From Arsenophonus sp. ET-KM2-MAG3 (lineage in GTDB: Bacteria; Pseudomonadota; Gammaproteobacteria; Enterobacterales; Enterobacteriaceae): DNA of 64,000 nt. The position numbers were made by a program, and so were the translations under genes. Below the pieces are notes generated by a model, which ran no database searches, was not told where the DNA came from, and saw only the letters and a program-made list of their open reading frames with translations. Location: contig JBQMRZ010000004.1 in assembly GCA_052174135.1 (NCBI GenBank), positions 203,410 to 267,409 on the forward strand, read 5' to 3'. Shown one piece after another: positions 1 to 56,125 of the stretch (positions are counted from its first letter, which is position 1; each line of letters starts with the position of its first letter).

Positions 1-1
1 A

Positions 2-9439: not shown

Positions 9440-9721
9440 TTGATTTATATATTATTAATTTTTATTAAAAAATTAATAATATAATAGTTATTTTGTAGTT
9501 ATCAAGCATGAATATTTAAAAAAATATTTGATATTTTATTTTTAATTTTTTATTTTTTTTAATGTTAAACTTATTAATAATATTTGTTTTTATTCGAAAT
9601 AAAATTTTTCAAGAAATTTAATATTTATTAGTTAAGATAAAAATCTACCTATATAAATATTTAAATGAAAACTAATAATATTATTCTTATAATTATTTTA
9701 TTTAAAAATAAAACAAGTCAT
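9440..9721 (-). pseudogene. yffB: Eroded fossil of ArsC-family protein YffB, the upstream operon partner of dapE in E. coli
   Basis: On the minus strand an ATG at 9721 reads MTCFIFK*NNYKNNIISFHLNIYIGRFLS*. The segment NNI-ISFHLNIYIG aligns with ANNIDYRFHDYRVDG of YffB: N, N, I, F, H and G are identical with one codon missing. About 10 N-terminal codons appear to be lost. The evidence is weak to moderate. Confidence 0.35.
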
Positions 9722-11898
9722 TTTAACTTTAATTTGTATTGTCTATTTTTAAATATGTTAAATTAATAAGTATTATATTTTTTTAAAATAAATTGGTTAA
9801 ATATTTTTTCAAATTTTTTATTTTTTAATAAAATACTAAATATTGTAGTATTATTTTATTTATAATAACTAGCTTTATATAAAAGATTTTTAGTAATTAT
9901 TTATGAATAAATTAATTTTATACATTACAATTAATTAAAGTTAACTGATGATTTTTTTAATAATTTTATATAATACAAATTACTTTATTTTTAATTTTAT
10001 AATCAAGATTTATTATTTTTATAAAAATATAGCATTTAAAATTTTATGGTTAATTTTTGAAAAATAGTTATTTATTTGTTCTTAATTTTAATTACAAAAA
10101 TATAACGAGAATTGATTGGTAAATTCAATTAACTAAAGAATAAAAAACTTAATAGATTTTTTGTTTTTTTTTAACTATTATTTAATTAATTTTAAAATTA
10201 AACACATAAATATTTATACATTTCTAAATTAATGATATTAATCTTCACATATAGATAATCTATTTAACAATAAACTCACGATATATAACCAAATTATCAA
10301 TTATTTATTTTATAAAAATACGAGTTATTCTAAGTTTTTTCGAAAAATTAGTTATTATTTGATATTAAGGATATTAGGTGGTATTTAAAAAATTTTTTAT
10401 AGTTAAATAAGGTATTTGTTTTTTTTAAAAAAAATTAAAACTGAATCAAACTATAATATATAGCTTATAAAATAAAAAAAACAAAAAAATAAAAAAAACA
10501 AAAAATATCATTATAATTTTAATTATTAAAGACCAATTACAGTTTATTTTTTTTTTGCTAATTTTATTAAAAATAAGACTAAAAATAAATTATTATAAAA
10601 ACATAAATTATGAATTATAAAATACCTTAATAAATAATATTTTTTTATTTAGAATTAAAACTCTAATATTTATTTTTTTCAAATTTATTGAATAATTGAT
10701 AGATAAAATAAAGTTCTTTTTTATGCTAGAATGATAATATCAATATAAAATTTATGATTTAAATAACATGAGAGAATTATTATTCTTAGATTGTATTAAC
10801 AATTTTTATAAGAATAAAACTATTTTGTTCTTTTTTTTTGATTTAATAATAAAACATAATTTGTTATAATCATTATTTAGTATAATAGTGTTCAATATTA
10901 TTAATATCTGAATTATCTAGTAAATCTTAGAAATATTAATGCTACATAAATAAATTTAATGAATTCATATTATTTACTTTCATAAAATATATTATCAATT
11001 ATTGATAATTCTTTATATTTTAGGTTAATGGTGTAATATATGAATTTTACTATATAACTAATTATAAGTGAAAAGTAGAATTGAAATATAGATACTTTAA
11101 AAAAAAATCCTTAGTCTCTTTTATTCTAAAAGAAACTTTATAAGAATATTGAGAATGATATAATAAATAATTAATATTTAGTACTAATTCACATAAAGCA
11201 TTTGATGAATAGTATTCGATAATTAATGAATTATATATTCTATATGTATTTAAAAAATACAAGATTTATTAATTGGATTAATTTATTAATTCTTTTAAAT
11301 AAACAAAAATGTGTTTTATAAAAAAATAGGTAATATTTTGATTTTTAAGTATTTTAATATAAATATATTCAATATTTTGTAAATTAATTCTATAATTATT
11401 TAATTGATATCTTTAGTTGAGATAAATAAAAATTAAAATTTTATTTTTTATCATGAAAATTTTATTTTCATGATAAAAATTTTTGACTAGTTTACATGTA
11501 GTAAAATACTCTAAATAATAATGATCATGATGTTGTAATTTTTTTTTTGAAAAAAAACTTGTTTTATTTTATTTTGATCAAATATATATTTGATATTCTG
11601 AGTAATTTAATTTTTTAATAAAAATATTATTAGCTAATATACCATAAAAAAGTAAATTATACTTAATTTTATAAAATATTATTTATAGTCTTAGTATCTA
11701 ATGAATTAATATCATAAAATTAAATATTTTGTCTATTATTATATTTTAATTTAATTAAATTAATTTGTTATTTTTTGTCATATATCTTTTTATTTAATTG
11801 ATTTTATAATTATATTTTAATCAAAAATTATTGATAATAAGATATAAATATATTTATATTTTATTTACAGTAAAGTGTTTATCAAAAAAAGTTATCTA

Positions 11899-12798
11899 TT
11901 AGCTAAATAAAGTAATTAATAATGGCGTTAATAAACTTAATACAAAACCATGTATAATAGCAGAAGGTATAATAGAAGCTCCTCCACTTTGTTGTAATAC
12001 AGGTAATGCAAAATCCATTGATGTTGAACCACAAATCCCCAATGCAGTAGATCGAAATTGATTAATAATAACAGGAATAAGCATGATAGCTAATAATTCA
12101 CGCATTAAGTCATTAAAGAAAGCAGTACTACCAATAACCGGTCCATAAACATCTGTGAGTACTATGCTAGTTAGAGAATACCAACCATAACCTGCTGCAA
12201 TTGATAACCCTATTTTTATGGGTAAATCTAATAAAAATGAAGCCAAAATACCACCAAGTAAGGCACTTATAGCAACAATTATTGCAATTATAGCTCCTCT
12301 AAAATTAATTAAAATTTGCTGAAGGTAGATTCCACTATTACGAAGATGACAACCAATTAATAATAATAAAAAAATAAGTATAATTTCAGAACTATTTCTT
12401 GCATAGGATAAAAATTGCCACTTTGTTAGTCCTAATAAGAAACCTAGCAATAACATACCACAAAGTGGTAGTAAACTTATAATCATTTTTAATCGAGATA
12501 ATGCTTTATTGGTTTTATATTTTGTGATTTTCCATGGAAAAAATTTATCTAATAACAATAAAGAAATAAGATTTGCAGTAAAAATGCAGAGAAAAAAAAC
12601 AATTGTATAAATAAAAATTGAAGTAAGATGAATGTTAATATTATCTAATAATGCCAATGTAATTCCCATTAAAAATAAAATTATGTAAACCATAATGCTT
12701 AACAAACAATCAACAACTATTAAAATTTTTTTATTTTTAAAGCAAAATAAATAACCTAATATTAACGGTAAAAGAATAATAAATAGTTTTGAATACAT
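11899..12798 (-). CDS. lysO: lysine exporter LysO (YbjE family inner-membrane protein)
   Basis: The 299-aa polytopic ORF has the same length as E. coli YbjE and is collinear with it (MYSKLFIILLPLILGYL.., GYGWYSLT, PVIGSTAFFNDLMRELLAIMLIP, STSMDFALPVLQ, IHGFVLSLL). Confidence 0.85.
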   Translation of the reverse strand: MYSKLFIILLPLILGYLFCFKNKKILIVVDCLLSIMVYIILFLMGITLALLDNINIHLTSIFIYTIVFFLCIFTANLISLLLLDKFFPWKITKYKTNKALSRLKMIISLLPLCGMLLLGFLLGLTKWQFLSYARNSSEIILIFLLLLIGCHLRNSGIYLQQILINFRGAIIAIIVAISALLGGILASFLLDLPIKIGLSIAAGYGWYSLTSIVLTDVYGPVIGSTAFFNDLMRELLAIMLIPVIINQFRSTALGICGSTSMDFALPVLQQSGGASIIPSAIIHGFVLSLLTPLLITLFS

Positions 12799-13854
12799 AG
12801 TTAATCCTTGTTATAAATAATGCTTTTATAGTGATGATTTTATATAAATAATATAAAAAATAGACAAAATAGTAAAAAATTTATTTAGATTAAGGGAGCG
12901 TAAAATCACAAAATAATGTTTAAATGTAATTTATTTTTAATAGGATTTTATTTATAAAAAATAAAATTTTTTATTTTCATGGAATTAATTACCTTTCATT
13001 AAAAAACAGAATCATAATATCATATTAATTACTGAATTTTCTTGATAACTCAAATTTATTAAATAAGTTAATTTTTATCATTCAAGCTATTAATTATATT
13101 AATTTAATGATCATAATAATAATTATTTAGATAATACTAATAAATAAATCAATACTTTATAACTAATTTTATTCCTTTTAAAAATTGAATAAACAGTTAT
13201 AAAATTAGTTACTTTAATTTATTATAAACATTATTGATTAAATGATATTAAGATATGAATGTATTTTCATTAAATGATTACATGAAAATAAAATTGATAT
13301 TTTTTTGTTATTGAGTAATTTTTAGATTAAAATAATTACTTCATTTAAAGTAATATAAATAAATAGATTTAGCAAATTATTGTTTCATATTTTAGAGCTG
13401 ACATTTAAGAAGCACTTTATTTTATGTTATAACAATTAAATTCTATGTATTTTTATACACATAATCTTATTGAATTTATTTTTAAATAATAAAATAAATT
13501 TTTTATAAATATTAATTAAAATATTAATAAAACATCTTATGAAGAAATTTATGATATATTGCATTGTATTAATTTAATAATTATTCTATTTTTTAGATCT
13601 CCATCAGAATATAAATGGTGTCTAATAATATCAATTATATTATAATAAGCATAAACAACGATATTATATTTAATTAAATGTTTAGTTTATTTTTATCACT
13701 TTGCAATTTAAAGTCAATTTTAAATTAATGAATTATATTAATTGACTTATTAATGATTACTAAAGTTCTAAAAAATTATTTATATTTTATTATATTTTTA
13801 AATTAATTTATTAAATTTTATTTTATAATCATAAGTTCAATATCAGCTTATTCC

Positions 13855-13897
13855 TTTTGTGCTATAGATATCTGTAACAGATATCTATAGCACAAAA
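13855..13897. repeat. Perfect 43-nt palindrome with 21-bp arms and a single central A
   Basis: The sequence is ttttgtgctatagatatctgt a acagatatctatagcacaaaa. All 21 pairs were checked base by base, and the arms contain 5 G:C pairs. T-rich sequence precedes it and an A-run follows it. It lies in the lysO-ybjG desert. Confidence 0.9.
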
Positions 13898-16339
13898 AAA
13901 AGTTAGAATAGAAAATATACTAGATTAGTAATCTATAAATCTTTATATCAATATTCCAGTAAAATAGTGTGTATATTCTACTTTTTATACAAGAATAATA
14001 TTAAATATAGAGTTTTATGAAACGGGATGAATATTATCCTAAATAATAATAAATAATGATTATTTTATTTGTTATTATTACTTCAAAAGTTATTTTTCTA
14101 TTTTATTATCTCTCATGAACATGAATATCAGAATATTTCAAATTATAAAACACAAAAAAATAAAATTAAAATGTTATCATCTTGCATTCATTTTGATAAA
14201 ATGGTTAAAAGATATGTTATTTTGACAATTTTATTATAAAATATTTAAAATAAATATAGTCATTAAAGGTTATTTTACTTATATGTAATAAAGTTTGATT
14301 ATAAGAAAATCATATATGTGTGAGTAAATTAGCGTTAATATACTATTAAAAAATTTTTATTTATTTAAATAAAATTAACATATCTGATATATTTCAGTGG
14401 TTTAAAAATAGAATTTTACTAAAAATAGTATTTTATCTATAAAAATTTTACATATTTGTACGGAAAATGAATTTAATAAAGATAATATTAAGATAAAATT
14501 ATTTATTTGAATAAATTTAAAATTTATATTGCTATTATCAAATATAATAGATCATTATATGATAATGAAAATTAAAAATTTTTTTATTATGTCTGATATC
14601 AATAATTAAATAGAGTGCTATAAGAAATAGAATAAATATAAGATATAATAAATTTTGTACTAAAATGACTCATAAAATACTTTTTGTTCCATTTACAATA
14701 AACATTTTATTTTTCATAAAGTACCAATTAATAATAAGTATTATTAAAATTTTTTTATTTATTGTAGCTTTAATTTTATGTTATCACTTAAATAAATTTA
14801 GATATGAGCTAAAAATCTTTCTCATAATAATTCGTGTTAATTAACGCTAACATAAATTATGTAAAATAATACAATACTAAAGCTTTATTGGTAGTGAGAA
14901 ACTTCTATTTCTATTATTCTTTCTTATTTCGATAATTGAATAATTAATTATCTATTTTTATATTTTAATTATCCCTTTATATTACATTTTATTATTTATT
15001 TTTAATAAAATAATTATCTTTAATTATTAAACTCTATAGTTCCTATTAAGATAAAACTTAAAACATAATTAAATATTAAAATTTTAATTTATATAAATAA
15101 AAGTGGATTTTTAATTTCTTAAAGAGAATAAATATAAATTGAGATATAAATACTATTATTACTTTCACTCAAAATAATTAATACTTTTTATTTAAATATT
15201 TAAAATATATGATAGTGATATTTGTTTTCTTTATTAAATAAATTATTTGCTGATAACATCAGTTTTTAAAAATCAATTAATTTTTATAAAAAATCGCTAT
15301 TTCAAATTTAAAAGTAAAACAAATTATATTTTTTTATTTCAATAATATTTAATTATTCATGATGGTTAAATAATTTGATTTATTTTAAAATAGATAATTA
15401 AGATTTTTAGATTTTTTATATTAACTAAGTTTTAATTATTTTCTTACCAATTAATTTAAAAAATTGAGATTAGATAAAATCTAAATCAAATAATATTAGT
15501 ATAATTGTTATTATAAATCAATTATAATAATAATTATTATGTATAAATATTTTTAATAAAATTAAATTATTGATTTAATATAGTTTTTTAAAACAAATTA
15601 ATAATATAAATATCTACTTATTTTTTAATTAATGAACAATATATTTATAATTATGTTAATTTTAAGATTAAATAAAAAATTTATTATCTTAAAATTAATT
15701 TAAACAAAATTATTCATCATTTAATTTAATTTATTGACTTTAAATCATAAATCAAAAAATATATTTTAAAAAATATATTTTAATAAAAGATAATAAATAA
15801 TAAATACCCTTAATTTATAATATTTTAAAAGTTATTTAGTTATTAAAAAATCTGATATTTTAAACTATGATCTATTTAAGATATCTTTTTATTCATTAAA
15901 ATCTAAGTAATCTTCTAGATTTAAGAATAATTTGATTTTTCACTTATATTGTTATTAATATTTATGAAAACAAAGATCATGATAATTACCATATTAATTT
16001 GTTACTCTTAATAACTGAAATAATTAAATTATCTTTAAATTAAATTACTTTTTAAGGATACCGATATATTATTTCTCTATTTAAAGAAATATTAAGAATA
16101 ATTTTGATTTTTTAATAGTTTTAATTAAATAAAATAATTTGAACATTAACATATAATTTCATTTGACTCTAAAGTACGAAGTAGATTTTTTTAAAGAAAT
16201 GATTAATAATATTATTTATATCTAATAAATGCAAAATTTTTATAAAATTTTTTTAAAATTACTTTACATTACATAAAATATTTATTTTTAATAATTTGAT
16301 ATACAATTATTATTGTAAAGATTTAATGAGGATTTTATT

Positions 16340-18659: not shown

Positions 18660-20027
18660 ATGATAAACATTCATAATTAAATTAATTAAGCGCTTTAAAT
18701 ATCATAATTTCAAAATATTTCGATTAATTTATTAATAAGAATTATTTTTATTTTAAATAAAAAACTAAATAAAATACAAGTACTTATTAGAATATAAGTA
18801 ATTTTTTATTAATATTTTAAATTTAATTTAAATGAAGATAGTTATTTTATACTATTTAATTAATGAAAATTTAGAAATAATTTTTTATTAGCAATCTAAT
18901 CGAAAAGAGATAATGATTTTAGTAAAATATATTAATGTTAATATTTATGATTAATTATCTTTAAACTAGTAAATAACAAAAAATTAATATTTGTATTACT
19001 AAAGATATTATAGATTAACTAATAATTACATATTTCAATAAACATTGATTTTATATTTATTATTAGTAGTAATGTTAAATAAATTCAATGTTTATTGTTT
19101 TATTTTTTCTTGATTTATTAAAAATAATAAAATTATATGTATTTTTAAAATATGCGTTATTGTATTTTTATTATTTATTGGTCTAAAATAAAATGATTAA
19201 TATTTTATTAGCATTGATTAAGTAAACTAGATATTTTTATAGTATTAAATTTGATTAATATTTAAAATAAAAAATATCATAATTAATCAGTTATATTTTC
19301 ATATATATATATTATTCATCATCTAAGTATTATCTTATTACTATTTTTAAAATTTTTAAGTATATTAATTTAAGATTTAATAGCCATCCTAATAAACTTT
19401 AATTAAATGATAATAATTTGTTGATAGTATTCTATATAAATCTCACTTCTTTTTTTTTCGAACAACTAAAGTCTGATCATGTATAGTTTTATTATCAATA
19501 AAATTTATAATTATTTAATAATAAATCAATAATATAAATAATATTTATTTAAAAATAATAAAATTAATCAAATTAACTTAAGTAAAATTTAATTATAAAT
19601 AAATTATTTTAATTTTGTTTTAATTAATTTAACTAAAAATTCTATCCTTAATATTTATTTTCTGATCATAAAGTAAATTAAGATTATAGTTATAATTAAC
19701 AATTTTTCTTCAAAATAAAATAAATTTTACTTTTGTATTAATTGATTACATAAAAAAAGTATAAATATTCATTATAGTTAAATATTTTTAATATTTTGTT
19801 ACTTTTATGATTAAAGTTTTATTTAATGGAATAAAAATATAGATTAAATTGTTAACTATTAATTATAAGAGTAACAAAATTTTTTAGAAGCTATAAACTT
19901 AGATATTTATCTAAAAAAAATATTAATATATTAAGTTTAATAAATAATTAGACTCTCGTTCTGTAACATTACTTAATGTTTTATAGTATTTAAAATATAT
20001 ACATTAATAATGGGATTAACTATTTTT
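18660..20027 (+). pseudogene. sdaB: Eroded fossil of L-serine deaminase, the downstream partner of sdaC
   Basis: An ATG at 18660, 13 nt after the sdaC stop, opens a frame with no indel through at least codon 73. M1, I2, S15, R44, V47, Y50, I64 and N73 are identical to SdaB as recalled. The best block is 18786-18809, IRI*VIFY against TRVVVDVY. The frame contains many stops, and the 3' boundary is only a length extrapolation. Confidence 0.35.
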
Positions 20028-20779
20028 AAAAAAAAATAAGTTTTAAATTAAATTAATTAGCAATTAATTGTTAATTCAATAATAAATTTATTATATTATA
20101 TTTAAAATTAAATATAATAATTAATTTAAATTAGCAATAAATCATATGAAAATTATAAGCTTTAATTTTATCTAATATTAAAAATATAATTTAATTTTTA
20201 AGAGAAAATAAACCTATTATCTTATTTTTTTTAATAATTAAATTATATATTAAAATAAGTTAAAAACTTATAATATAAGATATATTAATAAAAGAATTTA
20301 GTTTATTTCAAATGAAATATATATAATATAAAAATATATTTTTAATATATCTAGTATTAAATTTAATTTGATTAAAATTAATATTAATTATTATAATTAC
20401 TAAATCTTTTAAAAAAAATATCTTTTTATAAATATTTATAAAAATAATTAACAATCTTTATTTTATAGTTATTTAATATAATTAATAGTAATAAGGAATA
20501 AATGTAGTATAACTTAATAAAGTTATTTGAATAAATATTTAATTAATCTTAAAGATTTATGATTAATTTATTATTTATTAAAATATAAATAAATTTATTC
20601 AAAAAAAAATAAATAAAAATTTAAACTAATTTCTAAAAAAATATTAAATTAAATCAAAATTCTATAAATAAAATTATTACTATAAAAACAGGTAATTAAT
20701 TAACTTTTAATTTAATAATAAGAAAATTAACTTACATTAAAAACCATAAAATAATAAGACTAAAATGGAACTAAAAGAA

Positions 20780-20824
20780 AAATTATTATTTTTATCTAAT
20801 ATGTATAGATAAAAATAATAATTT
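20780..20824. repeat. Perfect hairpin with a 19-bp stem and a 7-nt loop
   Basis: The sequence is aaattattatttttatcta atatgta tagataaaaataataattt. Arms are 20780-20798 and 20806-20824, checked base by base, with one C:G pair. Confidence 0.85.
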
Positions 20825-21390
20825 AATAAAAAAAAAATAAGAAATAAAAACATAGAAATTTTTGTTGCTAAGTAAATTTCATTGAAAATAATAATAATAT
20901 ATTTAAAATATTATATTTTTAATTAATTTTATTTTTAAAATATAAAATTTAATTAAAATTATAAATAATTAAATCTATTTAAGTTTAAAAATAATTAATT
21001 TATTTATATAATTTATATTTCTAAAAAAAATATTTTTTTTAATATAAATAAAATTTTAAATGTTGTAATAACAATTATTTTTTTTAAAAAATATAGTTTA
21101 ATTATAAATTTATAAATATAATTTATATATATAATATTGTGCTTATTAATATTTTATTATACTAATCATATAATTATTATTTTTATCTAAAATTAATTAA
21201 TAATTATATATTTAAAATAAAAAACTATTTTCTTTGTTAAATATTTAATCTAATTAAAATTTAATTAAATTAATCATTAATATTATTTTTTGTTTCAAAA
21301 ACTATTATTAATTATATTTGATATTCATTTCTATGAATAATATAATGATTTAAAATTATTCGAATAAATATACAAGTAGGATTTTAAATT

Positions 21391-22095
21391 ATGTCAGTAA
21401 CTAAACTGGTTTTAATGAGACATGGAGAAAGTGAATGGAATAAAGAAAACCGATTTACTGGCTGGGCTGATATTAAGCTTTCTGAAAAAGGCCATGAAGA
21501 AGCAAAAGCCGCAGGCCAGTTATTAAAAAAAGGGGGATTTATTTTTGATTATGCTTATACATCTGTTTTAAAACGTGCTATTCACACATTATGGAATATT
21601 TTAGATCAAATAGATCAACAATGGTTACCTGTTGAAAAAAATTGGCGACTAAATGAACGTCATTATGGAGCTCTACAAGGTTTAAATAAAATGAAAGCTA
21701 TGATAAAATATGGTGATGAACAAGTTAAATTATGGCGTCGTGGTTTTAAAAATAAACCGCCAGAACTAACTAAAAATGATCTTCGTTACTGTTGTAACGA
21801 TCTTCGTTATACAAATTTAAACCAATCAGATCTTCCTGTTTCTGAGAGTCTCGCTACAACAATTGAACGTGTGATTCCTTATTGGAATAAAGTAATTAAA
21901 CAAAGAGTTGCTAAAGGTGAAAAAGTAATTATTATTGCTCATGGTAATTCATTGCGAGCATTGGTAAAATATTTGGATAAAATCAGCGAAGAGGAAATCT
22001 TTAAACTTAATATTCCAACTGCTGTTCCAATCATCTATGAATTTGATGAAAATATAAAACCTATTAATCACTATTATTTTAATAATAAAATTTGA
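21391..22095 (+). CDS. gpmA: 2,3-bisphosphoglycerate-dependent phosphoglycerate mutase
   Basis: The 234-aa ORF is collinear with E. coli GpmA ([43 protein letters not shown]), with an AGGA Shine-Dalgarno. It lacks about 16 C-terminal residues relative to the 250-aa E. coli enzyme. Confidence 0.95.
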
Positions 22096-22729
22096 ATAAA
22101 TTTAAAGTTATTACTTTAAATCCTAAAGTAAAATATTTAAGTTTATCTAAATAAAAAAAATCACTTTTATTTTTATCAATCAATTAATTAAACCTTAAAG
22201 ATATACTTAAAAAATATCTATTGTGTTAATATTTTATTATATGTTAATAGATTACTTATATTTATTTCTATTTTTTTAAAAATATTTTAAAGTTCTATCA
22301 AAGGTAATAATTATTGTTTGTAACATACTATTTTTCATTAAAAAAACATTTCAATTGCTTAACTAGATATTTTTATACTTCATATCAATTTATATGATAA
22401 AAATCAATCTTTTTACATAAACTTAATTTTTATAAATTTTATAAAAATTTCTATATTTTATTAATCATTAGATAAACTTTTATTATAATATAATATATGT
22501 TAATTTTATTTATTAATAGTATTTATAATTATCGAATTTCTTCATTTAGTAACTGATAAAATAGGTATTTTAGTTCTATTAATTATGTATTAATGTCTAC
22601 TTTATTTTTTTTTAAACAAATTTTAAATTTATTTTAAAAACAATATTAATTACAATTAATAGTAAACTCAAAAATAATAGCGTTATATATGTGTTAATAA
22701 TTTTAATAATTTAATAGGATTTTTAACAT

Positions 22730-23911
22730 ATGAAAAGATAATTTTGCAATAAAAATCCATTAGCGATTTAATTTAAATTTTAATTTTTATCTATAGTTAA
22801 TAATTATTATTATAATAAATTAAAAATAGAATAACAGTAATTAAGAATTAATTATTTTATAAATTAAAATTTAATATATTAATTCATGAAATATTTAAAT
22901 AATCAAAGTATAAAGTAGCTTTATGTGTTTTTAAAATTTTTTTTAATATTTAAAAAAAATAGAATATAAGAACTTTTTTATTTATTTAAAATTTAATCGC
23001 TTCATTTTTATGAATCATTTTTATTTAACATATAACTTTTATCTAGAGATTCTCTTAAAATAATAAATAAATTTTTTATTTTAAGAGAATTATAAAAATA
23101 TAAATAGCAATTAATGCACTAAAATATAAATTATTTTATTTAGTTAAATACTATAAAATTATTCATTAAAGTATAGAATAACGACGATTTTTTAATATAA
23201 TAATTAAATATCTTTAAATTATTATAACTATACCATTATAGTATTAATTATAAAATCATCATTTTTTATTCAAAGAAATAAAATGGATTTGTTTTTATCT
23301 TTATTTTCGAGACAAAATACTTTATTAAGTTTTAATTTAATAATAAAATTAAATAATAGCGATAAATAAAATTATCATTATTTCAGAAAACTTTATTTTA
23401 ATAATCTCATTAATACGCATAATTTAAGTATTTAATTGTAAAAAAAAAATAATAATATCAATTTTAGAATTTAAATATACTCTCTTTAAAATCATTATTA
23501 ATAATTATTATATTTAATTTATTTTCTTATTTTTTATTTTTTTTTATTTAATAAATTTAAGTTATTTCATTACTATCTAAAAAAAACAATATATGTGAAT
23601 TCAGTAAAATCCATCTTTTCTTAAAGTTTATGCAATAGAAAATAATTTCTCTTCACATATTTGTTCTGATAAAAATCAGAGTTGAACCTTATCCAACTCT
23701 ACCAACAAAATAAATGTTAATATAAATGATAGCTATCCAATTTAGATGTTAATTACAAAATTTAGAAAATAACCTTTCTATATAAATTAATCATTAAAAA
23801 TGCTTTTGTATTCAATTTTACAATTGATATTATTTTTTGAATGTGAGATTTTAATTGTTTTAAAAAAAATCTAGTATATGTATACTAATTAATTCAGTTA
23901 TTTAAATAAAT
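22730..23911 (+). pseudogene. iscS: Eroded fossil of cysteine desulfurase IscS
   Basis: Three anchors lie in one frame. 23281-23316 reads KWICFYLYFRDK against KGIGA-LYVRRK (res 211-221). 23650-23670 reads SSHICSD against SSGSACTS (Cys328 loop). 23758-23781 reads KFRK*PFY against RFSLGRFT (res 354-361). A candidate start is ATG 22730 (MK.. with AGGA 11 nt upstream). The frame is full of stops, and the ends are approximate. Confidence 0.5.
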
Positions 23912-23927
23912 CTATTATTCTCATTTT

Positions 23928-24369
23928 ATGATAAAGAGTTTTTAATGATAAAAATAATTAATTTGATATAATTATATTTTTAATTAAAAGATAAAAAAAT
24001 CATTTTTCTTTTTAGGAACTTTTATACAAAATTCATTGCGATCTAAATAATTATTTAATTATTTCTTAATTAAAATATTATACTTTTTTTAAAATATTTA
24101 ATTTATTCAGAGTAACTTATAACTAACTATATCATTAAATTTTATATTATTAATTCAATTAATAATATAAAATAATTTGTTTTCATAAAATCAATTTTTT
24201 TATTTACTGTGCTTCTATTAATTAGAAACTATTATGAATAATAACTATATACTTAAAGTATAATATTAGATTAGAACAATATTTTATTTTTATACATTAA
24301 AACAAGAATTAAGATCCCTGATCTTTCCGTAACTTTATTTACTACTTATATACTTATAGATTAAAATAA
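23928..24369 (+). pseudogene. iscU: Eroded fossil of the Fe-S scaffold protein IscU
   Basis: An ATG at 23928 sits where iscU should follow iscS. The anchors are S4 (23937), G30 (gga at 24015, exactly the predicted position), C37-x-D39 (tgc gat at 24037-24042), Y61-C63-x-S65-I67 (tac tgt gct tct att at 24205-24219), I104-H105 (ata cat, then taa in place of Cys106, at 24292-24300), D112 (24313) and Y121 (24340). The stop at 24367-24369 is one codon from the expected position. There are multiple internal stops and an in-frame expansion of about 96 nt between C37 and C63. Confidence 0.55.
24139..24173. repeat. Perfect 35-nt palindrome with 17-bp arms around a central C
   Basis: The sequence is attttatattattaatt c aattaataatataaaat, checked base by base. 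It lies inside the length-expanded part of the iscU fossil. Confidence 0.85.
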
Positions 24370-27300
24370 TTTAAAAATTATGATTTAATCTTTTTAATTA
24401 AAATATTTTAATTTAAATAAACTAATTTCTTAAATTTTTTATATTTATTAAAATATTTATAATATTACCACTTATCGTTTATTAAGATCGGAAAGTTTAT
24501 TTATTCTATATTAACAATAACTACAATATTTCATGCTAATTGGTCAATATTATTGCTGTAATTTTATTTAATTTTACTGCACTATTTATTAGTAGTACCG
24601 TATTCATCTAAACATAAATAAAATTACTGTACTTTATATACATTGAAATAATAAATTTTATCTTAAAATTCTGATAATACAAACAAATTACTTTATTTTA
24701 TATATTTACTTTTTCCATATCATTATTTTAATTGCCATCAATATTTTATTTTTTATTAGTTGTTATATATATTAATTTACAAGTTATTTTTCTATAATAC
24801 TTTTTTCTACTTTATAATTAATAAAAAAATTAAAATATTTTTTCTATAATTATATTAAAAATATTCTTGTTATCTATCAATATATACTTATCTTGAAATA
24901 TTAATTAAAATCTTATTATTTTAATTAATTAAAGTCACTGAATTTAATGAAATTAATAACTATAATTTCGTATAAATAATTATACGAAATGATTATTTTA
25001 GTTGATAATTATTTATATTTTATATAGCATAATTTATTTTATTTCTTAATAATTAATTAACTCTTATAAGTATAAGGGTATCTTTTAGTATTTAATTATA
25101 TTATCTTATTTTTTATTAATATTCTATCTATTTAAAAAAAATAAATTTCAAATTAACAAAAAATTATCTAACTTAAAATTATTAATTTATATAAATACAT
25201 CTTTTAAAATTATTTTAAATTTAAATTAAATTTTAATCATATGTTAACAATTCATGTTGATAACATTACTTGATTAATATAATTAAATATAAAAAATTAT
25301 ATTTTAATCAACTAAATAATAATTATAAATTTCTATAATCTATAGAAATACAATCAATATTGTTAACCCACTAAAACTTACATATTTATCTTATGTAAAA
25401 CATTAATTTAATTAAACTTATCGTCTAATAAACCATTTATTAACCTTAATGATTTATTATTTATAATTAATAGTTATATTAGTATAACTTCATCTAATTT
25501 ATCTATTGTTCTATTTTTATTTGATATACTGTTTAATATGATCTTTACAATAAATCGCAAAATTGATTAATAAAATCATTATTTTAATATAAATGATTTA
25601 AATTTCATTATATGAGTAATTATTATTTTATATTTTTTAATAAAATATATTTTTACAACATTATTGTATTAAAATGGAATAACCTGAATGTTGTTATAAA
25701 CAATAAATTAAAATATTAAATAAATTCATGCATATTAAATGTTAATACAGTTTTTTTTAAAATATATAAATATTTATAGATTTATTAAAAATAACAAGAG
25801 AATAATTACTAATGTTTTAATTTTTTATAATTAAAGTAATAATATTAATTCATCGTTTTATAAAAATAAAAGATAAAAATATTCATATTTCTTTAAAAAT
25901 AGTAATTATAATAAAAAAATTAATTTTTAATATTTTTTATTATAACTTTTTCTAAAAATTCTATATATTAGAATAATTTTTATATTATAAAAAATCTAAT
26001 TTTTAGAATACCATAAAATCTGTATAATACAAATATTACTATTTAAAATATATTGTAAATAATAAATTCAATAATTGAATTACCTTAAATTATATTAATA
26101 CCATGTTTCTAACGAGCATTCAAATATATAATATAGAAAATTATAATACAAATAAAAAATAAATATATTACTTTATTATAATAAATTATTTCATTTAATT
26201 ATTGATGTATATAATCATATTTATATTTATATTTATACTATAATTACTTAATATTAACTATTTTAATTTATTTAAATAATAAATTAAAAACTATATTAGT
26301 ATATAATACTATTTATGATATAAAATTTCTACTAAAAATATTAATAGTTAAAATAACATTTTCCATTTATAGATATCAAAATGTCAATGATTTTAATTAA
26401 AAACACTAACTATAATTTATATTTTTTTTATATTAACTTATTACCCCCACAAAATGATCTATAAAATAATTAAGTGTGAGAAAAAATTTTATAAAATAAT
26501 TAAAAATTATATATCTTTTATACTTTATATTTCATTTATTGAACAATAAAGTTCTTTTTACATATATTTATAATATTTGTTATATATTTTATATTTTTTT
26601 ATTTTTATTTAGTTATAAACACTTTTTCTAACAGAATCCCTCTAATTTTAACTTAAAATAAACCTAGTGGATATTATTAGGTATAAAATCCATAGTAACA
26701 TACAGTTAAAAGTTCGAAATATATTATTAATATTTCAATTAGTAATAGTATAAAAAAAATAAAAATTATCATATAGTACATCAATTCAATTAATTAAATT
26801 TACTTTATTTTTATAAAATCATAATTTCATTCAAATAAATAAAGTTATCATAATTAATATCGAATAAACATTATTAAAAATTAATATAGTTTTAAATACT
26901 TATTATGCTTATTTTTAATTGTTATAATTTAATTAGATAATTTAAATATGAGAACTAATGTAATTAATTTTGTATTTTTTAAACAATAAAAAATACAATA
27001 CTAATTTTTATCAGTTATAATTTATTATTATATTAAAATTATCAGCTTTAAACAATTAAAGATTAAATTTTCACTAAATGTTTGATATCCATTTCAAGTA
27101 TTTTCTGCAATTCTCATAGAGATTTTTCACTATTGATAACTGATTTCTATTAAACCAATATTTTATATAATTAAAAAAATCACTTAAATTTTATAAATAA
27201 AAAAAATTACAAAAACTATAAAAAATTAAACTAGTTTAAAATAAAAAATAAGCTATATAATGATATTAATAAATTATCATAATACTGATTGTATAATTAT

Positions 27301-27700
27301 AATTATTAATTTTCATGAATAATAATGAAAATTTACTTATAGAAATTTCTAGATATACTATTTTCATATTAGAGACAATTTATTCTTATATTTAATTGAA
27401 AAAATAAATTGTTAATTTAAACTAAATCAATAACCATAAAAATATAGAGGTGATGCATTATAAACGCTTTAATATTAATTGAAAAAAATTTTTTATATAT
27501 TGATGTATTAAGAATCTATAAATTTAAATTAATTTATAATAATTAATGAGCTCAAAATAAAAAAAATTCCAGAAATTATTTTATTAATGAAATTTAATAA
27601 ACACAAATAATAATAAATTAAATTATTACTTATATAAAAATTTAAAATTATTTTAGTTATATTACTTGTTTATAGTGGAATATATTAATTTACAATAACT
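24370..27700 (+). pseudogene. Unresolved remainder of the isc operon fossil (iscA-hscB-hscA-fdx-iscX expected by synteny)
   Basis: The stretch has the expected length and position between the iscU fossil and pepB. Weak anchors only. ATG 24380 lies 11 nt after the iscU fossil stop, with 'cgt tta' (RL) plus Cys codons that could derive from IscA. 25353 reads INIVNPLKL against IDLGTTNSL of HscA. ATG 27453 with a GAGG Shine-Dalgarno reads MHYKRFNIN.., sharing M1, K4, Y16, L22 and M32 with IscX. Individual gene borders are not resolved. Confidence 0.3.
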
Positions 27701-27764
27701 TCTATTACTAATATCTGATATTTATCAATTATTTGATAAAAAATACGACAAACTAAGGCAAAAA

Positions 27765-29060
27765 ATGGAAAAACAAATTATGCAAATTTTGTTATCTTAT
27801 GAACCAGCAGCGCTTTGTTGGGGGAAAAATGCATTAATTAGTTATAGTGAAAAAGGAATTGTTATTCACGTGAACTCACAGGAAAAACTATATGAAATCC
27901 AAAGTGCAGGTCGTAAACTGGATAATCAAGGTATCCATCATGTCATATTAGCAGATAATAATTGGAATTTAGAAGAAAGTTGGGCATTTTGGCAAGGATT
28001 CAGATCGCCTAAGGGACCCCGCTCTATTGAATGGCCAAATTTATCTGAAAATGAAAAAAAGGAATTACAGTATCGCATACAAATTATTGATTGGGTACGC
28101 GATATTATTAATAAACCACCTGAAGAATTATCCCCTGAACAATTAGCACAGCACAGCGTTAATTTATTATATGAGACAATAAAAGATAATATTAATTATC
28201 GTATCATTAAGGGTGAAGAATTAGCAAAACAAAAGTATAATGGAATTTATATAATAGGTCGCGGTTCAACTCGCCCTCCTGCATTATTAGTTTTAGATTA
28301 TAATCCAGCTCGAAATTTAAAAGAACCAGTATTTGCTTGTTTAGTAGGAAAAGGTGTTACGTTCGATTCTGGCGGTTATAGTATAAAACCATCTTCATCA
28401 ATGAATTCAATGAAAGCAGATATGGGAGGAGCCGCTATACTAACTGGAGCATTAGCATTAGCAATAAGTCGAGGTTTAAAACAACGAGTAAAACTTTTTC
28501 TCTGTATTGCCGATAATATGATAAGCGGTAATGCATTTAAATTAGGTGATATTATTCACTACCGTAATGGTAAATCTGTTGAAATTATGAATACAGATGC
28601 AGAAGGAAGACTTATTTTAGCGGATGGATTAATCGATGCTTCTAAAGAAAATCCAGAATTAATTATTGATGCTGCAACACTAACAGGTGCAGCTAAAATA
28701 GCAGTAGGTAATGATTATCATTCTGTATTAAGTTTTGATGACAAATTAGTAGCTAAATTGATGTTTTCATCAGAAATAGAAAATGAACTTTTTTGGCGTT
28801 TACCTTTAGCAGAATTTCATCGTCGTCAATTACCTTCTATGTTTGCAGATATAAATAATATTTCGTTAAATTCTCATACTGCTGGTGCTAGTATAGCTGC
28901 TGCTTTTTTATCATATTTTGTTGAAAATTATTATAATGGATGGCTTCATATCGATTGCTCAGCTATTTATCATAAATCTTCTATGGATTTATGGGCAGAA
29001 GGTGCAACCGGTATTGGCGTCAGAACTATTGCTAATTTATTGCTGAAAAAATCAAAGTAA
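27765..29060 (+). CDS. pepB: aminopeptidase B (M17 family)
   Basis: The 431-aa ORF is collinear with E. coli PepB ([57 protein letters not shown]). Confidence 0.95.
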
Positions 29061-36354: not shown

Positions 36355-37533
36355 ATGCATTTTAGTAGAACGTTCTTAATTTCTTTTTTAATTTTGACGT
36401 TATTAATAGGATGTTCAACAGAAAAAGATTTTATAATGACACCACTTTTACCTAAAATAAATAATCAATTTACACCTTCTATTATCTGGCATCACTCAAT
36501 AGGAAATGGTAGTGGAAAATATTATTCTCAACTTTCACCAATCTATAATGATTCTATTGTTTATGCAGCAGATCGTAAAGGAATAGTAAAATCAATGGAT
36601 GCTACTTCAGGCAAAATATTATGGTCAATTAATTTATCAGAACAGATTGGTTTTTTGAAAGTTAATTTATCAACGGTGCTTTCTAGCGGATTAACGATTT
36701 CAGGAGATAAACTTTATATAGGAACAGAAATTGGTAAAGTTATTGCATTAAGTAAGATCAACGGGAAAATTATATGGGAAAAAGATGTTGCAGGAGAAGT
36801 GCTTTCCCAACCGGTAGTTAGTGATGGCATTTTATTGGTACATACAAGTAATGGTGTATTACAAGCGCTAGATTCACAAACCGGACAGAATAAATGGAAT
36901 ATTAATTTAGATATTTCAACGTTATCGATAAGAGGAAAATCAACGCCAGCTATCGCATATGGGATTGTAATTATTGGTAGTGATACCGGCCGTATTACTG
37001 CTATAATGCTTGATCAAGGACAGATTATTTGGCAACAATATATTTCTAAAATTTATGGTATAACTGAAATCGACCGTTTACATGATATTGATATAACGCC
37101 GGTTATTGATATCAATTCAGGTACTATTTTTGTTATTGCATATAATGGTGATTTAGTTGCAATTGATATACATTCCAGCAAAATTATATGGAAATGTAGC
37201 ATAGGATCAGTTAATAATATTATTATTTCTAATAATATTATTTATTTAGTTGATCAAAATAATTACATGCTGGCAATTTATAAAAACAATGGTGTTATCT
37301 TATGGACTCAAAATGCTTTATCAGATCGTAATTTAACCGCACCGATTATTTACGATGGTTACTTAGTGGTTGGTGATCAAAATGGTTATCTTTATTGGTT
37401 AAATATACACAATGGTCGATTTGTAGCATATAATAAACTTGATAATTCAGGATTACATAGTCGCCCAGTTATTGCTGGAGACAAATTGCTTATTCAGTCA
37501 AAAAATGGAACCATATACTTAATTAAACGTTAA
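36355..37533 (+). CDS. bamB: outer-membrane protein assembly factor BamB (lipoprotein)
   Basis: It has a lipobox LLIGC|S and is collinear with E. coli BamB (VYAADRKG, VAGEVLSQPVVSDG, GQIIWQQ, EIDRLHDID, DGRFVA). Confidence 0.92.
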   Translation: MHFSRTFLISFLILTLLIGCSTEKDFIMTPLLPKINNQFTPSIIWHHSIGNGSGKYYSQLSPIYNDSIVYAADRKGIVKSMDATSGKILWSINLSEQIGFLKVNLSTVLSSGLTISGDKLYIGTEIGKVIALSKINGKIIWEKDVAGEVLSQPVVSDGILLVHTSNGVLQALDSQTGQNKWNINLDISTLSIRGKSTPAIAYGIVIIGSDTGRITAIMLDQGQIIWQQYISKIYGITEIDRLHDIDITPVIDINSGTIFVIAYNGDLVAIDIHSSKIIWKCSIGSVNNIIISNNIIYLVDQNNYMLAIYKNNGVILWTQNALSDRNLTAPIIYDGYLVVGDQNGYLYWLNIHNGRFVAYNKLDNSGLHSRPVIAGDKLLIQSKNGTIYLIKR

Positions 37534-40092: not shown

Positions 40093-41006
40093 ATTAATTT
40101 TAATTATTACTAGATTAACATTTAATTATACACTTAATATTATTTGAGTTCATTTTATTATTGAGTAAGTTTATTAACATGAGAATAATAATATCAAAAT
40201 ATTAAATATCATAATTTACTGATATTGATAATAATAAAATACATACTTTAATTAAGTAAATTTATTATTTTTATAAAATTTTTTATAATTATAAACATAT
40301 AGTTGATGATCTAATTATTAGTTAGTAAAATTAACTATAATCAATCAATTTAGATTAATTATAAATATTTATATCTATTTTTACATTCATATTAATTTAA
40401 TATAGTTCTGATATTATTTAATGATATTATTATTTTTTTTTGATAAATTTTAATTATTTGAAAAAAAAATGGAAAATAATGTTAAAAAATAAAATTTTTA
40501 ATTTAATTTGAAAACAAATAGTTTAATTATAGACATAATAAATTATTTAATTTTTTAATCATTTATTCAACATAAGTAAAATTTTAAGACTACTATTAAC
40601 ATGTTATTTATTTTATTTTATTTTATTATCATTATTCTTATTTAAATAAAAAAATGAGAATTATTTGATTTATCTATAGAATATAAAAAAAAATAAAAAA
40701 TATTTCAATAAAGTTATTTGATTTTAAATAAACATTTATATTATTAAAGATTTATAAATTAATAAAAAATAAATAGATATTTTCTGATAGTAATATTAAA
40801 TTTGAGATATTACGGATTTGATTTTTTAGTAACTAAAATACGAAATAAAATTATCTGTATAATAATTAGAAAATATGATAATTATCAAAGCTATATTTAT
40901 TATTTACTTATTTAATTTTATAAAATTTAATTTTATGATAAAAATATAAATATACTAATGAGTTACTAAAAAATCAATTTGATAAAAAAAGTTTTTAATA
41001 AACCAT
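40093..41006 (-). pseudogene. amiA: Eroded fossil of N-acetylmuramoyl-L-alanine amidase AmiA, the upstream operon partner of hemF
   Basis: Two minus-strand anchors share a frame. 40818-40807 aat ccg taa tat reads NP*Y against DPGH (res 62-65). 40602-40579 atg tta ata gta gtc tta aaa ttt reads MLIVVLKF against MSIHADGF (res 130-137). ATG 41006 (MVY*KLF against MSTFKPL) lies 5 nt from the predicted start. The frame is stop-riddled. Confidence 0.4.
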
Positions 41007-41272
41007 ATGCGCTTTAAGTATATAAAAAGAATGATGTCGTTATTTATGTACGTAAAAGGTTCATGAAGAGTTCTAGTAAAAAAATATTAATTTATATTAA
41101 ATAATTAGTTGATAATTTAGATTTTTATACACTGATTAATTTAATTAATTGAATGAATTAATACTTTTTATATAAAATTTTATTAATTTATTTTTTATTT
41201 CAGTTTTATTTAAAATTATAAAATATTTAAAAATTTTTTAATAAAATTTTATAGTTAATAAAAAATATATCA

Positions 41273-41338
41273 AGCATTAATAACCTAACATCCGATCAAA
41301 AAATAAATTTTTTGATCGGATGTTAGGTTATTAATGCT
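41273..41338. repeat. Perfect 66-nt inverted repeat with 32-bp arms and a 2-nt spacer
   Basis: The sequence is agcattaataacctaacatccgatcaaaaaat aa attttttgatcggatgttaggttattaatgct. All 32 pairs were checked base by base, and the arms contain 9 G:C pairs. It is by far the longest perfect hairpin in the window. Confidence 0.95.
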
Positions 41339-42082
41339 ATTTTATTTTAAAATATAAAGTTTATATAAAAATTAATATACTTTTTTAAAGTACATAAATA
41401 ACCGACACAAATATTAAATAATATAAGGGATAAAAAGGCAAATCATTTTTGAAAATTTACAAAATATATACTAAGAAAATATTTATTACTTTTATTTAAA
41501 ATTAATAAATAATTTTATTATAAATTATATTTTTCTTTGATTTAAATATATTATTTATTATTTTGATGATAATTAAAATTATTATTAATATTTAGTCCTA
41601 TAAGTCATTAATGTTAATTAATCAAGAAAGTGAATAATATTATCTAACAATTTAGAAAAATATTTAACTTATTAAAAAAATCTTATTTTATAATATAAAA
41701 ATAAATTATTGATTTTTAATCAAAGTAATATTTTATAAATTTATTAAAAAATAATAATTTATATTAATTATTTTAAAGTTATTATTTTTTATTTTTAAAT
41801 AAAATACATAGGTAAATAGAAACAATTTAATTTCAATTAATTTATTAATCATATTACATACTATTAGCTAACATAAAAAGTTAATCAAAATAGGAATTAT
41901 AAAAATATAGATAAAACTAAAAAATAATCAATAATCTCTATGAACAATCAGTGACAATAAAGAGCTGTTATTTTATTATTTAAATAAAAATAAAATTGAT
42001 TACACTATAAATTTATCTTATTAAAATCAATTAATATTAATGTAAAAATTACATTAATAATTATGATATTTTAAATAAATAT

Positions 42083-42125
42083 TTGCTAAAATTATTAATA
42101 CTTTTAGTATTAATAATTTTAGCAA
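42083..42125. repeat. Perfect hairpin with a 20-bp stem and a 3-nt loop
   Basis: The sequence is ttgctaaaattattaatact ttt agtattaataattttagcaa, checked base by base. It lies 0.75 kb from the 32-bp hairpin, in the same desert. Confidence 0.9.
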
Positions 42126-42405
42126 TAATAGTAAACTACTAAATAGAATTCTCTCAATTAATGATAAAATAAACAAAACAATAAATAAGAAAGCATATGT
42201 AATCTTGCACTATGAATAAAATCTTTATATGGAAGTAAGTAAAATTAATTAATTTAATAATTATTAATTTATGTTATAAAAACATAAATTTTGGCACATC
42301 CATCAGATAATTAGTATAACTAATTATTTTTTATTAAAAGTGACTATAATTATAAGAAAATTGGTGATTTTAGTTAATACTTACAATTAATATATAAAAA
42401 TTTTA

Positions 42406-42910
42406 TATTTATAATCTATATGATAATAATCTCATTTATAATGTAAAAATTAATCAGTTTAGCTAATTTTTATTTTATTTATCATAAATGATTATAGATA
42501 TTAATATTAATTTTTTATTTTTCTTATAATAAGAATAAATAATATTTTAAATATTAAATCATTTTTTATAATTTTTTTTACCTTCTTTTCTTAAATACTA
42601 GAATTCTCCATTATTTAATTTAACAATATTAGTATCAAAATAAATAAATAATTTAATAACACTATATAGTTTAATAGAAAATTTTTAGTTTATTTTTAAA
42701 ATTTTATTAATAATATTCAACCTGAAAATAATTTCATTACTAGTAAGATTAATAAAAACATAATCATTAATAATTTTTAGTAAAATAACAGCTAAAACAT
42801 ATTTTATGTTAATAAATTTATCCAAAATCTTTGTAATAATATTAATATTGGATATCATCTTAATATACTTAAAGTTAATAATTCCGATTTATTAAGTAAG
42901 GGGGGTTCAT
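42406..42910 (-). pseudogene. crr: Eroded fossil of PTS glucose-specific EIIA component (Crr)
   Basis: It lies immediately downstream of ptsI on the same strand, with an ATG at 42910. From gga at 42885-42883 (G19) one frame runs to the end with these collinear matches. GIIN..NI..F matches G19, I21, N33, I34 and F42. 42729-42715 reads IFRLN against IFETN (both catalytic His residues lost). 42639-42601 reads FDTNIVKLNNGEF against FGIDTVELKGEGF. 42585-42580 reads EG against E110 G111. 42468-42415 reads KLAKLINFYIINEIIII* against ELIKLSGSVTVGETPVIR. There are several in-frame stops. Total length is about 505 nt, against a 510-nt intact gene. Confidence 0.6.
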
Positions 42911-44681: not shown

Positions 44682-44822
44682 AAATGTTTCCTTACTGCTA
44701 AAATACAAAAAATAGTTAATATAGAAAACTATGAATTTAATACTTATGATTTAATAGATATCTATAAATAGAGAGGTATCTAAAAATAAATAGAATATAA
44801 ATATTATATTTCTTATATGTTA

Positions 44823-45080
44823 TTATTCTAATTTAACTATTAACTTTACTAAATGTTCTACTGCTTTCTGTTCATCTTCACCTTCTGCAGAGATAATAAT
44901 AACAGCTCCTTTAGTTAAGCCGAGTGTTTGTAATTTAAATAGACTTTTTGCGCTCACAGATTCATTGTTATATATAAGCATAATTTCAGAAGAAAAACTT
45001 TTTGCTTCTTTGACAAATTGAGCTGCTGGTCGCGTATGAAAGCCATTAGGTGTAGCAATAGTGACTTCTTTTTGGAACAT
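44823..45080 (-). CDS. ptsH: phosphocarrier protein HPr
   Basis: The 85-aa ORF reads [42 protein letters not shown] and includes the His15 and Ser46 regions. Confidence 0.97.
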
Positions 45081-56067: not shown

Positions 56068-56125
56068 TTCAGTTAATCATTGGGACAAAATGCTACCTTG
56101 TAATAATAGTTTAGATGGAGATACT

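Follow-up and report, generated by a model that had tools for sequence, protein, structure and literature searches.

An ORF-free stretch upstream of pepB in a cicada Arsenophonus as a probable composite of decaying genes from two ancestral neighbourhoods

What fills the 5,669 bp between gpmA and pepB in Arsenophonus sp. ET-KM2-MAG3? In the window, the 64-kb stretch of DNA analysed here, no open reading frame at positions 22096–27764 upstream of pepB, be it on the plus or the minus strand, exceeds 35 aa; an earlier note made from the sequence had described them as ORF-free. That note took the desert for a fossil iscRSUA-hscBA-fdx-iscX operon, and in E. coli and A. nasoniae isc is indeed found ahead of pepB and on its strand. 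The analysis presented here leads to a different answer: the desert very probably combines decaying pseudogenes of two ancestral neighbourhoods, joined by a chromosomal rearrangement, and has no function of its own.

The desert and its flanks

The desert has a GC content of about 13%. An independent Logan assembly reproduces it with 100% identity and the ET-DL9 assemblies with 99.3%, so it is not an assembly artefact. Both flanking genes are intact and lie on the plus strand. On the right, pepB (27765–29060; NCBIfam PRK05015, 700 bits) is followed by ndk, rlmN, rodZ, ispG and hisS. On the left, where the isc synteny assumed by the note would place trmJ or suhB, gpmA is found (21391–22095; NCBIfam PRK14115, 391.6 bits), whose product shares 99% identity with GpmA of Arsenophonus sp. 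ET-DL9-MAG3. The suhB/trmJ upstream boundary seen in relatives is absent here; suhB', trmJ' and iscR' are located at a separate locus together with iscS.

Relics of aroG, pnuC and nadA beside gpmA

The ancestral order at gpmA is preserved in A. apicola and E. coli K-12, where cydAB-ybgE-ybgC-tolQRAB-pal-cpoB-(tRNA)-nadA-pnuC-aroG / gpmA is found and where aroG, pnuC and nadA adjoin gpmA and point towards it. By sequence comparison, the left ~1.8–2.1 kb of the desert is shown to be these ancestral gpmA neighbours, eroded aroG, pnuC and nadA on the minus strand. The desert DNA reaches a chain score of 140.5 against the gpmA-side order of A. apicola (null 65.2 ± 7.4), and seven of the eight top Smith-Waterman hits are collinear with the order running from gpmA through aroG, pnuC and nadA towards tol. 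The sub-block 22096–23900 is collinear with A. apicola L083 10754–14200 at z = 14 over shuffled controls, a value to be read with the distance of the reference genomes and the imperfection of shuffles as a null for AT-rich DNA in mind. Order and relative orientation beside gpmA in A. apicola and E. coli match the relics at 22224–23872; the genes are intact there, whereas here the DNA is 53–78% identical and carries many stops and frameshifts.

The aroG relic (Phe-sensitive DAHP synthase), including its 5' end and upstream region, occupies 22224–23072 on the minus strand and chains to L083 10894–11926 at 53–67% identity. Residues 194–325 of AroG align to 22609–22224 with 13 stops and 4 frameshifts, the motifs FLSVTK..S.I.NT and IDF.H.N being retained, and the frameshift-aware score is significant with both the A. 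apicola (z = 4.1) and the E. coli query (z = 4.0). Next on the minus strand follow the aroG-pnuC spacer and the pnuC relic (23114–23386), whose collinear segments match L083 11963–11983 (90%), 12211–12338 (57%) and 12400–12473 (78%). In addition, tblastn places PnuC residues 57–118 weakly at 23504–23352. At the protein level the frameshift-aware test of PnuC was not significant, so pnuC is assigned from DNA. The nadA relic (quinolinate synthase; 23387–23872, minus strand) is found at both levels: the DNA matches L083 12783–13051 and 13414–13588 (41 and 33 bits), and frameshift-aware alignment recovers NadA residues 153–236 at 23708–23447 (z = 8.6) and 89–124 at 23872–23768 (z = 3.0), with z = 3.1 for the E. 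coli query. The 5' part of nadA probably continues to about 24140. The scores of NadA, AroG and, as described below, Fdx in the desert exceed those that these proteins reach in nine further deserts within the window.

The same arrangement is shared by the ER lineage, where the interval measures 17.6 kb and contains the same aroG-pnuC-nadA relics (z = 7.1), and by ET-YP4, where it measures 3.5 kb. Identity between the desert and ET-YP4 is about 77% throughout, with large indels.

Remnants of fdx and iscX beside pepB

Within the desert, isc-derived DNA is confined to 27314–27610 on the plus strand, followed by the spacer to pepB. AT-aware Smith-Waterman alignment identifies the 3' end of fdx (codons 89–111 and the stop) at 27314–27382, in agreement with tblastn (69% for Fdx 93–105) and with the frameshift-aware Fdx score (z = 5.9). 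An iscX relic with a stop at its fourth codon lies at 27411–27610, where it aligns base by base to A. nasoniae iscX (L003 9636–9836) and where the IscX alignment ends at residue 66, position 27607. As a whole, 27314–27758 matches A. nasoniae L003 9538–9988 with 91 bits and 65% identity over 444 bp. The note had judged 27453 compatible with iscX, and a true iscX relic is indeed present; the ATG at 27453 exists, but the Shine-Dalgarno motif and ATG (27446–27455) fall at about codons 12–16 of the relic rather than at its start, and the frame opened there runs for 9 codons.

To the left, fdx homology stops abruptly at 27314 and its extension scores 0, and this edge is likely a rearrangement or deletion junction. 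To the right, the iscX-pepB spacer (27611–27764, plus strand) forms a well-conserved block in 9-sequence and pairwise alignments across Arsenophonus and presumably carries the promoter and 5' UTR of pepB; a promoter scan returned 8 sites, against 7.6 expected by chance.

Origin of the middle block

Between the two sets of relics lie 3.1 kb of unassigned eroded DNA (24201–27313), which make up 55% of the desert. No significant match was obtained for this block against isc, tol-pal, cyd, the ER-lineage desert, plasmids, phages or Rfam. Against tol-pal, ybgC and cyd the DNA reaches z = 1.6–2.4, none of the Tol-Pal proteins is significant in frameshift-aware alignment, and neither the ancestral tRNA cluster nor tol-pal is detectable in the desert. 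Marginal collinear DNA matches are found for pal at 24555–24622 (23 bits) and for tolQ at 27042–27145 (30 bits). The GC skew of the block is -0.249 (C>G, p = 6e-7), the sign expected for minus-strand genes and opposite to that of verified isc relics (+0.17, +0.15 and +0.06). Synteny expectation and skew, the two grounds for an assignment here, suggest that the middle 3.1 kb is probably what is left of additional, earlier-decayed genes of the minus strand, with the ancestral cpoB-pal-tol run beyond nadA as the most likely source.

The block might instead represent hscA and the fdx 5' part, now unrecognisable and continuous with the fdx remnant, which would move the junction from near 27300 to near 24200. 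It physically adjoins fdx', neither hscA nor the fdx 5' part is found at the iscS locus (z = 2.4), and the HscA score of 52 (z = 1.9) is marginally higher than in other deserts (at most 49). However, fdx homology would hardly be expected to end with zero extension next to 444 bp at 65% identity, since genes of one operon should decay together, as they do in the sister lineages L008 and L009; with the opposite skew and the collinear tolQ match, this leaves the alternative unlikely. Foreign or mobile DNA, as the remnant of an IS element, a prophage or a plasmid lodged between the relic sets, would explain why no homology to the expected chromosomal neighbours is detected, but the plasmid and phage matches are weak, composition-driven and to AT-rich records (67–69%, E 1e-4 to 1e-5), the composition equals that of other deserts in the window, and part of the block is common to ET-YP4 at neutral divergence, so that such an origin is highly improbable. 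Even less credit is due to the idea that the desert is retained for a hidden small protein, sRNA or regulatory region. Spacer conservation and the 99–100% identity between strains could be cited for it, yet no Rfam family (E<=1) and no tRNA was detected in the desert, its longest ORF has 35 aa, its length is 3.5, 5.7 or 17.6 kb depending on the lineage, with large indels and the uniform divergence from ET-YP4 expected under neutrality, and the strain identity reflects recent divergence, genes being equally identical.

The fate of the isc operon

An intact iscS of 405 aa, with PLP-lysine and active-site Cys motifs retained, is present at another locus. In ET-DL9 it is flanked by trmJ'-iscR' (z = 28) and iscU'-hscB' (z = 26.5) fossils, and an identical IscS occurs in the window's own sequencing sample (SRR34985939). 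The operon was thus split rather than inactivated as a block in place. In this lineage iscS survives; judged from the window (fdx', iscX') and the iscS locus (iscU', hscB'), the scaffold, the co-chaperone, ferredoxin and iscX appear dead.

The peptide strings that the note had read as IscS anchors (KWICFYLYFRDK at 23281, SSHICSD at 23650 and KFRK*PFY at 23758) are located there in one frame, but frameshift-aware IscS scores 45 against a null of 47.8 ± 4.8, other deserts reach 66, and the strings fall within the pnuC and nadA relics of the other strand; the DNA that had been taken for the IscS active site belongs to the nadA relic. For IscU, the ATG at 23928 exists, but its frame stops at codon 6 and the score of 35 compares with a null of 33.8 ± 3.3 and with up to 41 in other deserts.

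The same method, which also recovers the fossils at the iscS locus and detects L090 as a positive control, found true isc fossils in the cicada Arsenophonus PLAkaem-MAG3 (L009, z = 46) and SUIform-MAG3 (L008, z = 22), which likewise have AT-rich, ORF-free DNA upstream of pepB and have kept iscS while iscU, iscA, hscB, hscA, fdx and iscX are dead. There, however, the fossil keeps its collinearity and is easy to detect, with suhB-iscS still upstream, whereas in the window the fdx 3' end and iscX stand alone beside pepB and the DNA upstream comes from the gpmA neighbourhood. A plus-strand collinear isc fossil spanning the whole 5.7 kb was rejected as scarcely credible: the length is close to that of the 5.8-kb A. 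nasoniae operon, the fdx'/iscX' relic is genuine, IscS-like strings occur at roughly the right spacing and sister lineages hold such fossils, but the left flank is gpmA, the DNA chain against trmJ..fdx scores 49.4 (null 51.8 ± 6.4, z = -0.4), frameshift-aware IscR, IscS, IscU, IscA, HscB and HscA yield z = -0.6 to 1.9 and none of them matched the desert in tblastn, the supposed IscS region aligns significantly to pnuC/nadA in minus-strand orientation, the skew has the wrong sign, and iscS with trmJ', iscR', iscU' and hscB' resides elsewhere. Both the lack of significant alignment to these six proteins and the significant alignment to other genes are outcomes that the note itself had named as refuting its reading. 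What stands of that reading is that an isc remnant abuts pepB and that the ISC machinery is largely dead; the desert as a whole operon does not.

The composite origin would be explained by a rearrangement in the ancestor of this cicada-Arsenophonus lineage, which we infer from two junction products. It would have brought the gpmA side and the pepB side together at about 27150–27314 and split the isc operon, leaving the fdx 3' end and iscX with pepB and iscS with trmJ', iscR', iscU' and hscB' elsewhere. Neither reciprocal partner (the tolQ 5'/ybgC side or the hscA-fdx 5' side) was detected, L090 11651–13215 reaching z = 2.4. By now, AT-biased mutation would have saturated the middle block and deletions would have shortened it, while fdx', iscX' and the spacer may have been kept in part because deletions there would damage pepB expression signals.

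No suf genes occur in the 64-kb window. IspG and RlmN, both 4Fe-4S enzymes, are kept, and of ISC only IscS; if SUF were absent, clusters would have to be assembled by some other route, such as assembly without a scaffold, or with the help of a co-symbiont or of factors from the host, a scenario to which we give little weight. The ydiK-aroH neighbourhood, in which suf lies in E. coli, is situated to the left of the window.

Implications for genome erosion

The locus corrects a false lead, in which a synteny guess from pepB to isc and short peptides picked by hand from 13%-GC DNA were misleading. Chained AT-aware alignment, run alongside positive controls, can be used again to name and date relics in extreme-AT genomes. 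Serratia symbiotica of Lachninae aphids and Sodalis-allied symbionts have pseudogene-rich genomes of low coding density. The desert is ordinary symbiont genome erosion, one more instance of the large AT-rich stretches of eroded genes, the rearranged gene order and the shrinkage by deletion seen in recently host-restricted insect symbionts, from which it differs in nothing essential. Within the genus, the Arsenophonus of Ceratovacuna japonica likewise has a pseudogene-rich genome of low coding density (PMC9672956), and cicada Arsenophonus are vertically transmitted (PMC12627099).

Taken together, the locus records routine losses: aroG is lost while aroH is kept, pnuC and nadA are lost, Tol-Pal is probably lost, ISC has been dismantled to iscS alone, and a rearrangement has split an operon. 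Several cicada Arsenophonus lineages have retained iscS alone, and the desert varies in length among lineages, which makes these loci modestly useful data points, and the series of 17.6, 5.7 and 3.5 kb of homologous desert could calibrate the rate of deletion against substitution in symbiont DNA.

The gene-free interval between gpmA and pepB

The desert between gpmA and pepB (window 22096–27764), which the earlier note had called ORF-free, is devoid of any ORF longer than 35 aa. An independent assembly contains it with 100% identity, its identity to the related strain ET-DL9 is 99.3%, and exact copies of window proteins are found in the ET-DL9 assembly and in the Logan assemblies of SRR34985939-41. 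GpmA is 99% identical to its ET-DL9-MAG3 counterpart, and PepB is 90% identical to that of Arsenophonus sp. ET-YP4-MAG3. The related MAGs JBHEQS and JBHEQT represent vertically transmitted Arsenophonus hosted by platypleurine cicadas (PMC12627099).

Genes of the window have about 30% GC and the gene-free stretches between them 10–16%, and by our own sum over the listed ORFs the coding share of the window is about 45%; a tRNA search of the whole 64 kb returned no tRNA gene. Nine more gene-free stretches of 0.7–6 kb and 10–16% GC occur in the window (e.g., 44750–50800, 12850–16300, 40150–42900 and 18700–21350) and are presumably further eroded genes. Elsewhere in the window, the ihfB ORF (56009–56410, plus strand) carries a 39-residue N-terminal extension overlapping the end of rpsA; since the family match is limited to residues 40–132, the real start is probably internal to the listed ORF.

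Downstream of the desert, the order pepB, ndk, rlmN, rodZ, ispG, hisS matches that of E. coli. The gene upstream is gpmA rather than trmJ or suhB, so that a synteny break must fall somewhere within the desert.

Remnants of the isc operon

Arsenophonus nasoniae carries an intact trmJ-iscRSUA-hscBA-fdx-iscX-pepB locus, with which the desert was compared using our own Smith-Waterman aligner and a log-odds matrix that favours retained G/C and discounts A/T matches. The sole strong alignment joins window 27314–27758 to A. nasoniae 9538–9988 (444 bp, 65% identity, 91 bits) and comprises codons 89–111 and the stop of an fdx relic (27314–27382), an iscX relic with a stop at codon 4 (27411–27610) and the iscX-pepB spacer, in which a promoter scan was uninformative in such AT-rich DNA. 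Leftward extension anchored at the left edge of this alignment scored zero. The remaining 5.2 kb of the desert reached 22.4 bits against trmJ to fdx, with shuffles at 20–25, and a chained alignment of the desert with the same genes that allowed long jumps scored 49.4 against a null of 51.8±6.4.

Searches by tblastn with the Isc proteins of E. coli and A. nasoniae returned only Fdx residues 93–105 at 27324–27362, and in frameshift-aware protein-to-DNA alignment with shuffled controls Fdx reached z=5.9 and the IscX alignment stopped exactly at 27607. The earlier note had read the entire desert as a fossil iscRSUA-hscBA-fdx-iscX operon; in the same alignments IscR, IscS, IscU, IscA, HscB and HscA remained at z values of −0.6 to 1.9, and other deserts of the window gave equal or higher scores with the same Isc proteins. 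An 'ancestralised' sequence, built from the window and ET-YP4 with G/C preferred where they differ, did not increase the isc signal. Permissive blastn (+1/−1) was discarded, since all sequences aligned to all others at about 58%, driven by composition. The strings and ATGs on which the fossil-operon reading had been built do lie exactly where they were quoted, but the supposed IscS anchors at 23281, 23650 and 23758 fall in pnuC and nadA relics (see below), and the Shine-Dalgarno plus ATG at 27453 regarded as compatible with iscX (AGAGGTGATG) is internal to the iscX relic and opens an ORF of only 9 codons.

Genuine fossil isc operons are recovered by the same chain method in two reference loci of cicada Arsenophonus, PLAkaem-MAG3 (L009 6969–10000) and SUIform-MAG3 (L008 5189–10000), where 3–5 kb without ORFs separate an intact iscS from pepB. 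These stretches contain collinear iscU-iscA-hscB-hscA-fdx fossils, scoring z=46 in the former and z=22 in the latter, the full order behind iscS being iscU-iscA-hscB-hscA-fdx-iscX, which shows that such an operon is easily detected at 16–19% GC. The window holds no fossil isc operon of this kind.

Retention of iscS at a second locus

A search for IscS identified intact proteins in ET-DL9 and ET-YP4. The ET-DL9 protein aligns gap-free with E. coli IscS at 75% identity and keeps the PLP-lysine and SSGSACTS motifs. A contig from sample SRR34985939, where the exact PepB of the window also occurs, encodes an identical protein. The locus reads nadE, glyA, split suhB, iscS, 2 kb, serS. A trmJ'-iscR' fossil (z=28) fills the gap upstream of iscS, and an iscU'-(iscA')-hscB' fossil (z=26.5) occupies the first 430 bp on the downstream side, which indicates that the isc operon was split; the rest of the iscS-serS gap has no assignable match (z=2.4). 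In ET-DL9 and ET-YP4, suhB consists of two ORFs of 149 and 82–88 aa (L089 7959–8764; L093 8432–9237; L096 559–1355) and has likely either become a pseudogene recently or undergone a frameshift.

Of the operon, only iscS has been retained; hscA and the 5' part of fdx are lost or unrecognisable. Decay of the ISC system, as proposed earlier, holds for the scaffold, co-chaperone, ferredoxin and IscX, which are dead; its placement in the desert and its inactivation as a block do not hold, given the split operon and the intact iscS elsewhere. As iscS is also intact beside the isc fossils of PLAkaem-MAG3 and SUIform-MAG3, iscS-only retention recurs in several lineages.

Relics of aroG, pnuC and nadA

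In Arsenophonus apicola, the genes that come after gpmA form an opposite-strand run of aroG, pnuC, (nadA), cpoB, pal, tolB, tolA, tolR, tolQ, ybgC, ybgE and cyd, and the order next to gpmA in E. coli is the same. Seven of the eight best Smith-Waterman matches between the desert and this region of A. apicola are collinear, with a chain score of 140.5 (null 65.2±7.4) and a signal located in 22096–23900 (z=14). The chain maps minus-strand relics of aroG to about 22224–23072, of pnuC to about 23177–23386 and of nadA to 23387–23872. Frameshift-aware protein scores on this strand were z=8.6 and 3.0 for NadA, 4.1 for A. apicola AroG, 4.0 for E. coli AroG and 3.1 for E. coli NadA, and conserved strings are still legible (among them FLSVTK..S.I.NT, IDF.H.N, RF..T.KI).

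An aroG-like C-terminus at window 2–79 was considered as a conflict with the loss of aroG. It belongs to aroH, which encodes the paralogous, Trp-sensitive DAHP synthase; the window begins inside this gene, whose 3' end occupies positions 1–105 (plus strand), so that the loss of aroG is not contradicted. In ET-DL9, aroH is intact (355 aa; L102 14357–15424) and followed by a ydiK-like AI-2E transporter gene. Leftward extension beyond the window, toward a possible suf locus, reached these two genes, a neighbourhood that leads to the suf operon in E. coli; within the 64-kb window no suf gene is present.

The middle block

For the block at 24201–27313, tol-pal, CpoB, YbgC, YbgE and CydAB proteins and DNA gave no significant match, and plasmid, phage and Rfam searches returned compositional matches or none. 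Two marginal matches, both collinear, were seen: 23 bits for pal, and 30 bits for tolQ at 27042–27145. An AroH-like plus-strand frameshifted alignment at 25212–25531 (score 59, 30/117 identical, z=6.4 against shuffles) was rejected as noise, because another desert gave 57, AroG did not co-score and conserved motifs are absent. The block has a GC skew of −0.249 (152 G, 253 C, p=6e-7), and the absolute skew is at most 0.10 in the other nine gene-free stretches. Since coding strands are G-rich in this genome and verified relics have skews of +0.17, +0.15 and +0.06 (isc) and −0.13 (minus strand), we infer from the sign of the skew that the block is older minus-strand gene debris, most simply a continuation of the ancestral gpmA-side run.

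With A. apicola TolB as query, no ET- or ER-lineage protein was among the best 120 homologues, which did include NC- and NEOnobi-lineage cicada Arsenophonus. Tol-Pal may have been lost in this lineage, a reading that is suggestive only. Among envelope genes, the window has intact copies of msbA, lpxK, kdsB and bamB (58584–62971 and 36355–37533).

History of the interval

The gpmA-desert-pepB arrangement is also found in ET-YP4, with a desert of 3.47 kb that shares about 77% identity over the blocks that align, and lacks counterparts of two large window blocks. In the ER lineage of cicada Arsenophonus (CP198938/CP198939; 2.0 Mb, 20% GC), the interval spans 17.6 kb (L097 10715–20714 and L011 2434–10000), is essentially ORF-free and contains the same aroG-pnuC-nadA relics (z=7.1), with no isc similarity beyond fdx' and iscX'; compared with it, the middle block of the 5.67-kb desert gives no match and is saturated (z=−0.2). 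The shared arrangement implies that the junction probably predates the ET-ER split, the length of the interval having since been altered by indels.

Taken together, the desert is a graveyard of pseudogenes of composite origin: about 5% of it derives from isc and about one third from aroG-pnuC-nadA on the other strand, and the remainder has no significant match. It represents ordinary symbiont genome erosion and is of low general interest. The intervals of 17.6, 5.67 and 3.47 kb in the ER lineage, the window and ET-YP4 form a natural series for deletion versus substitution in dead DNA.
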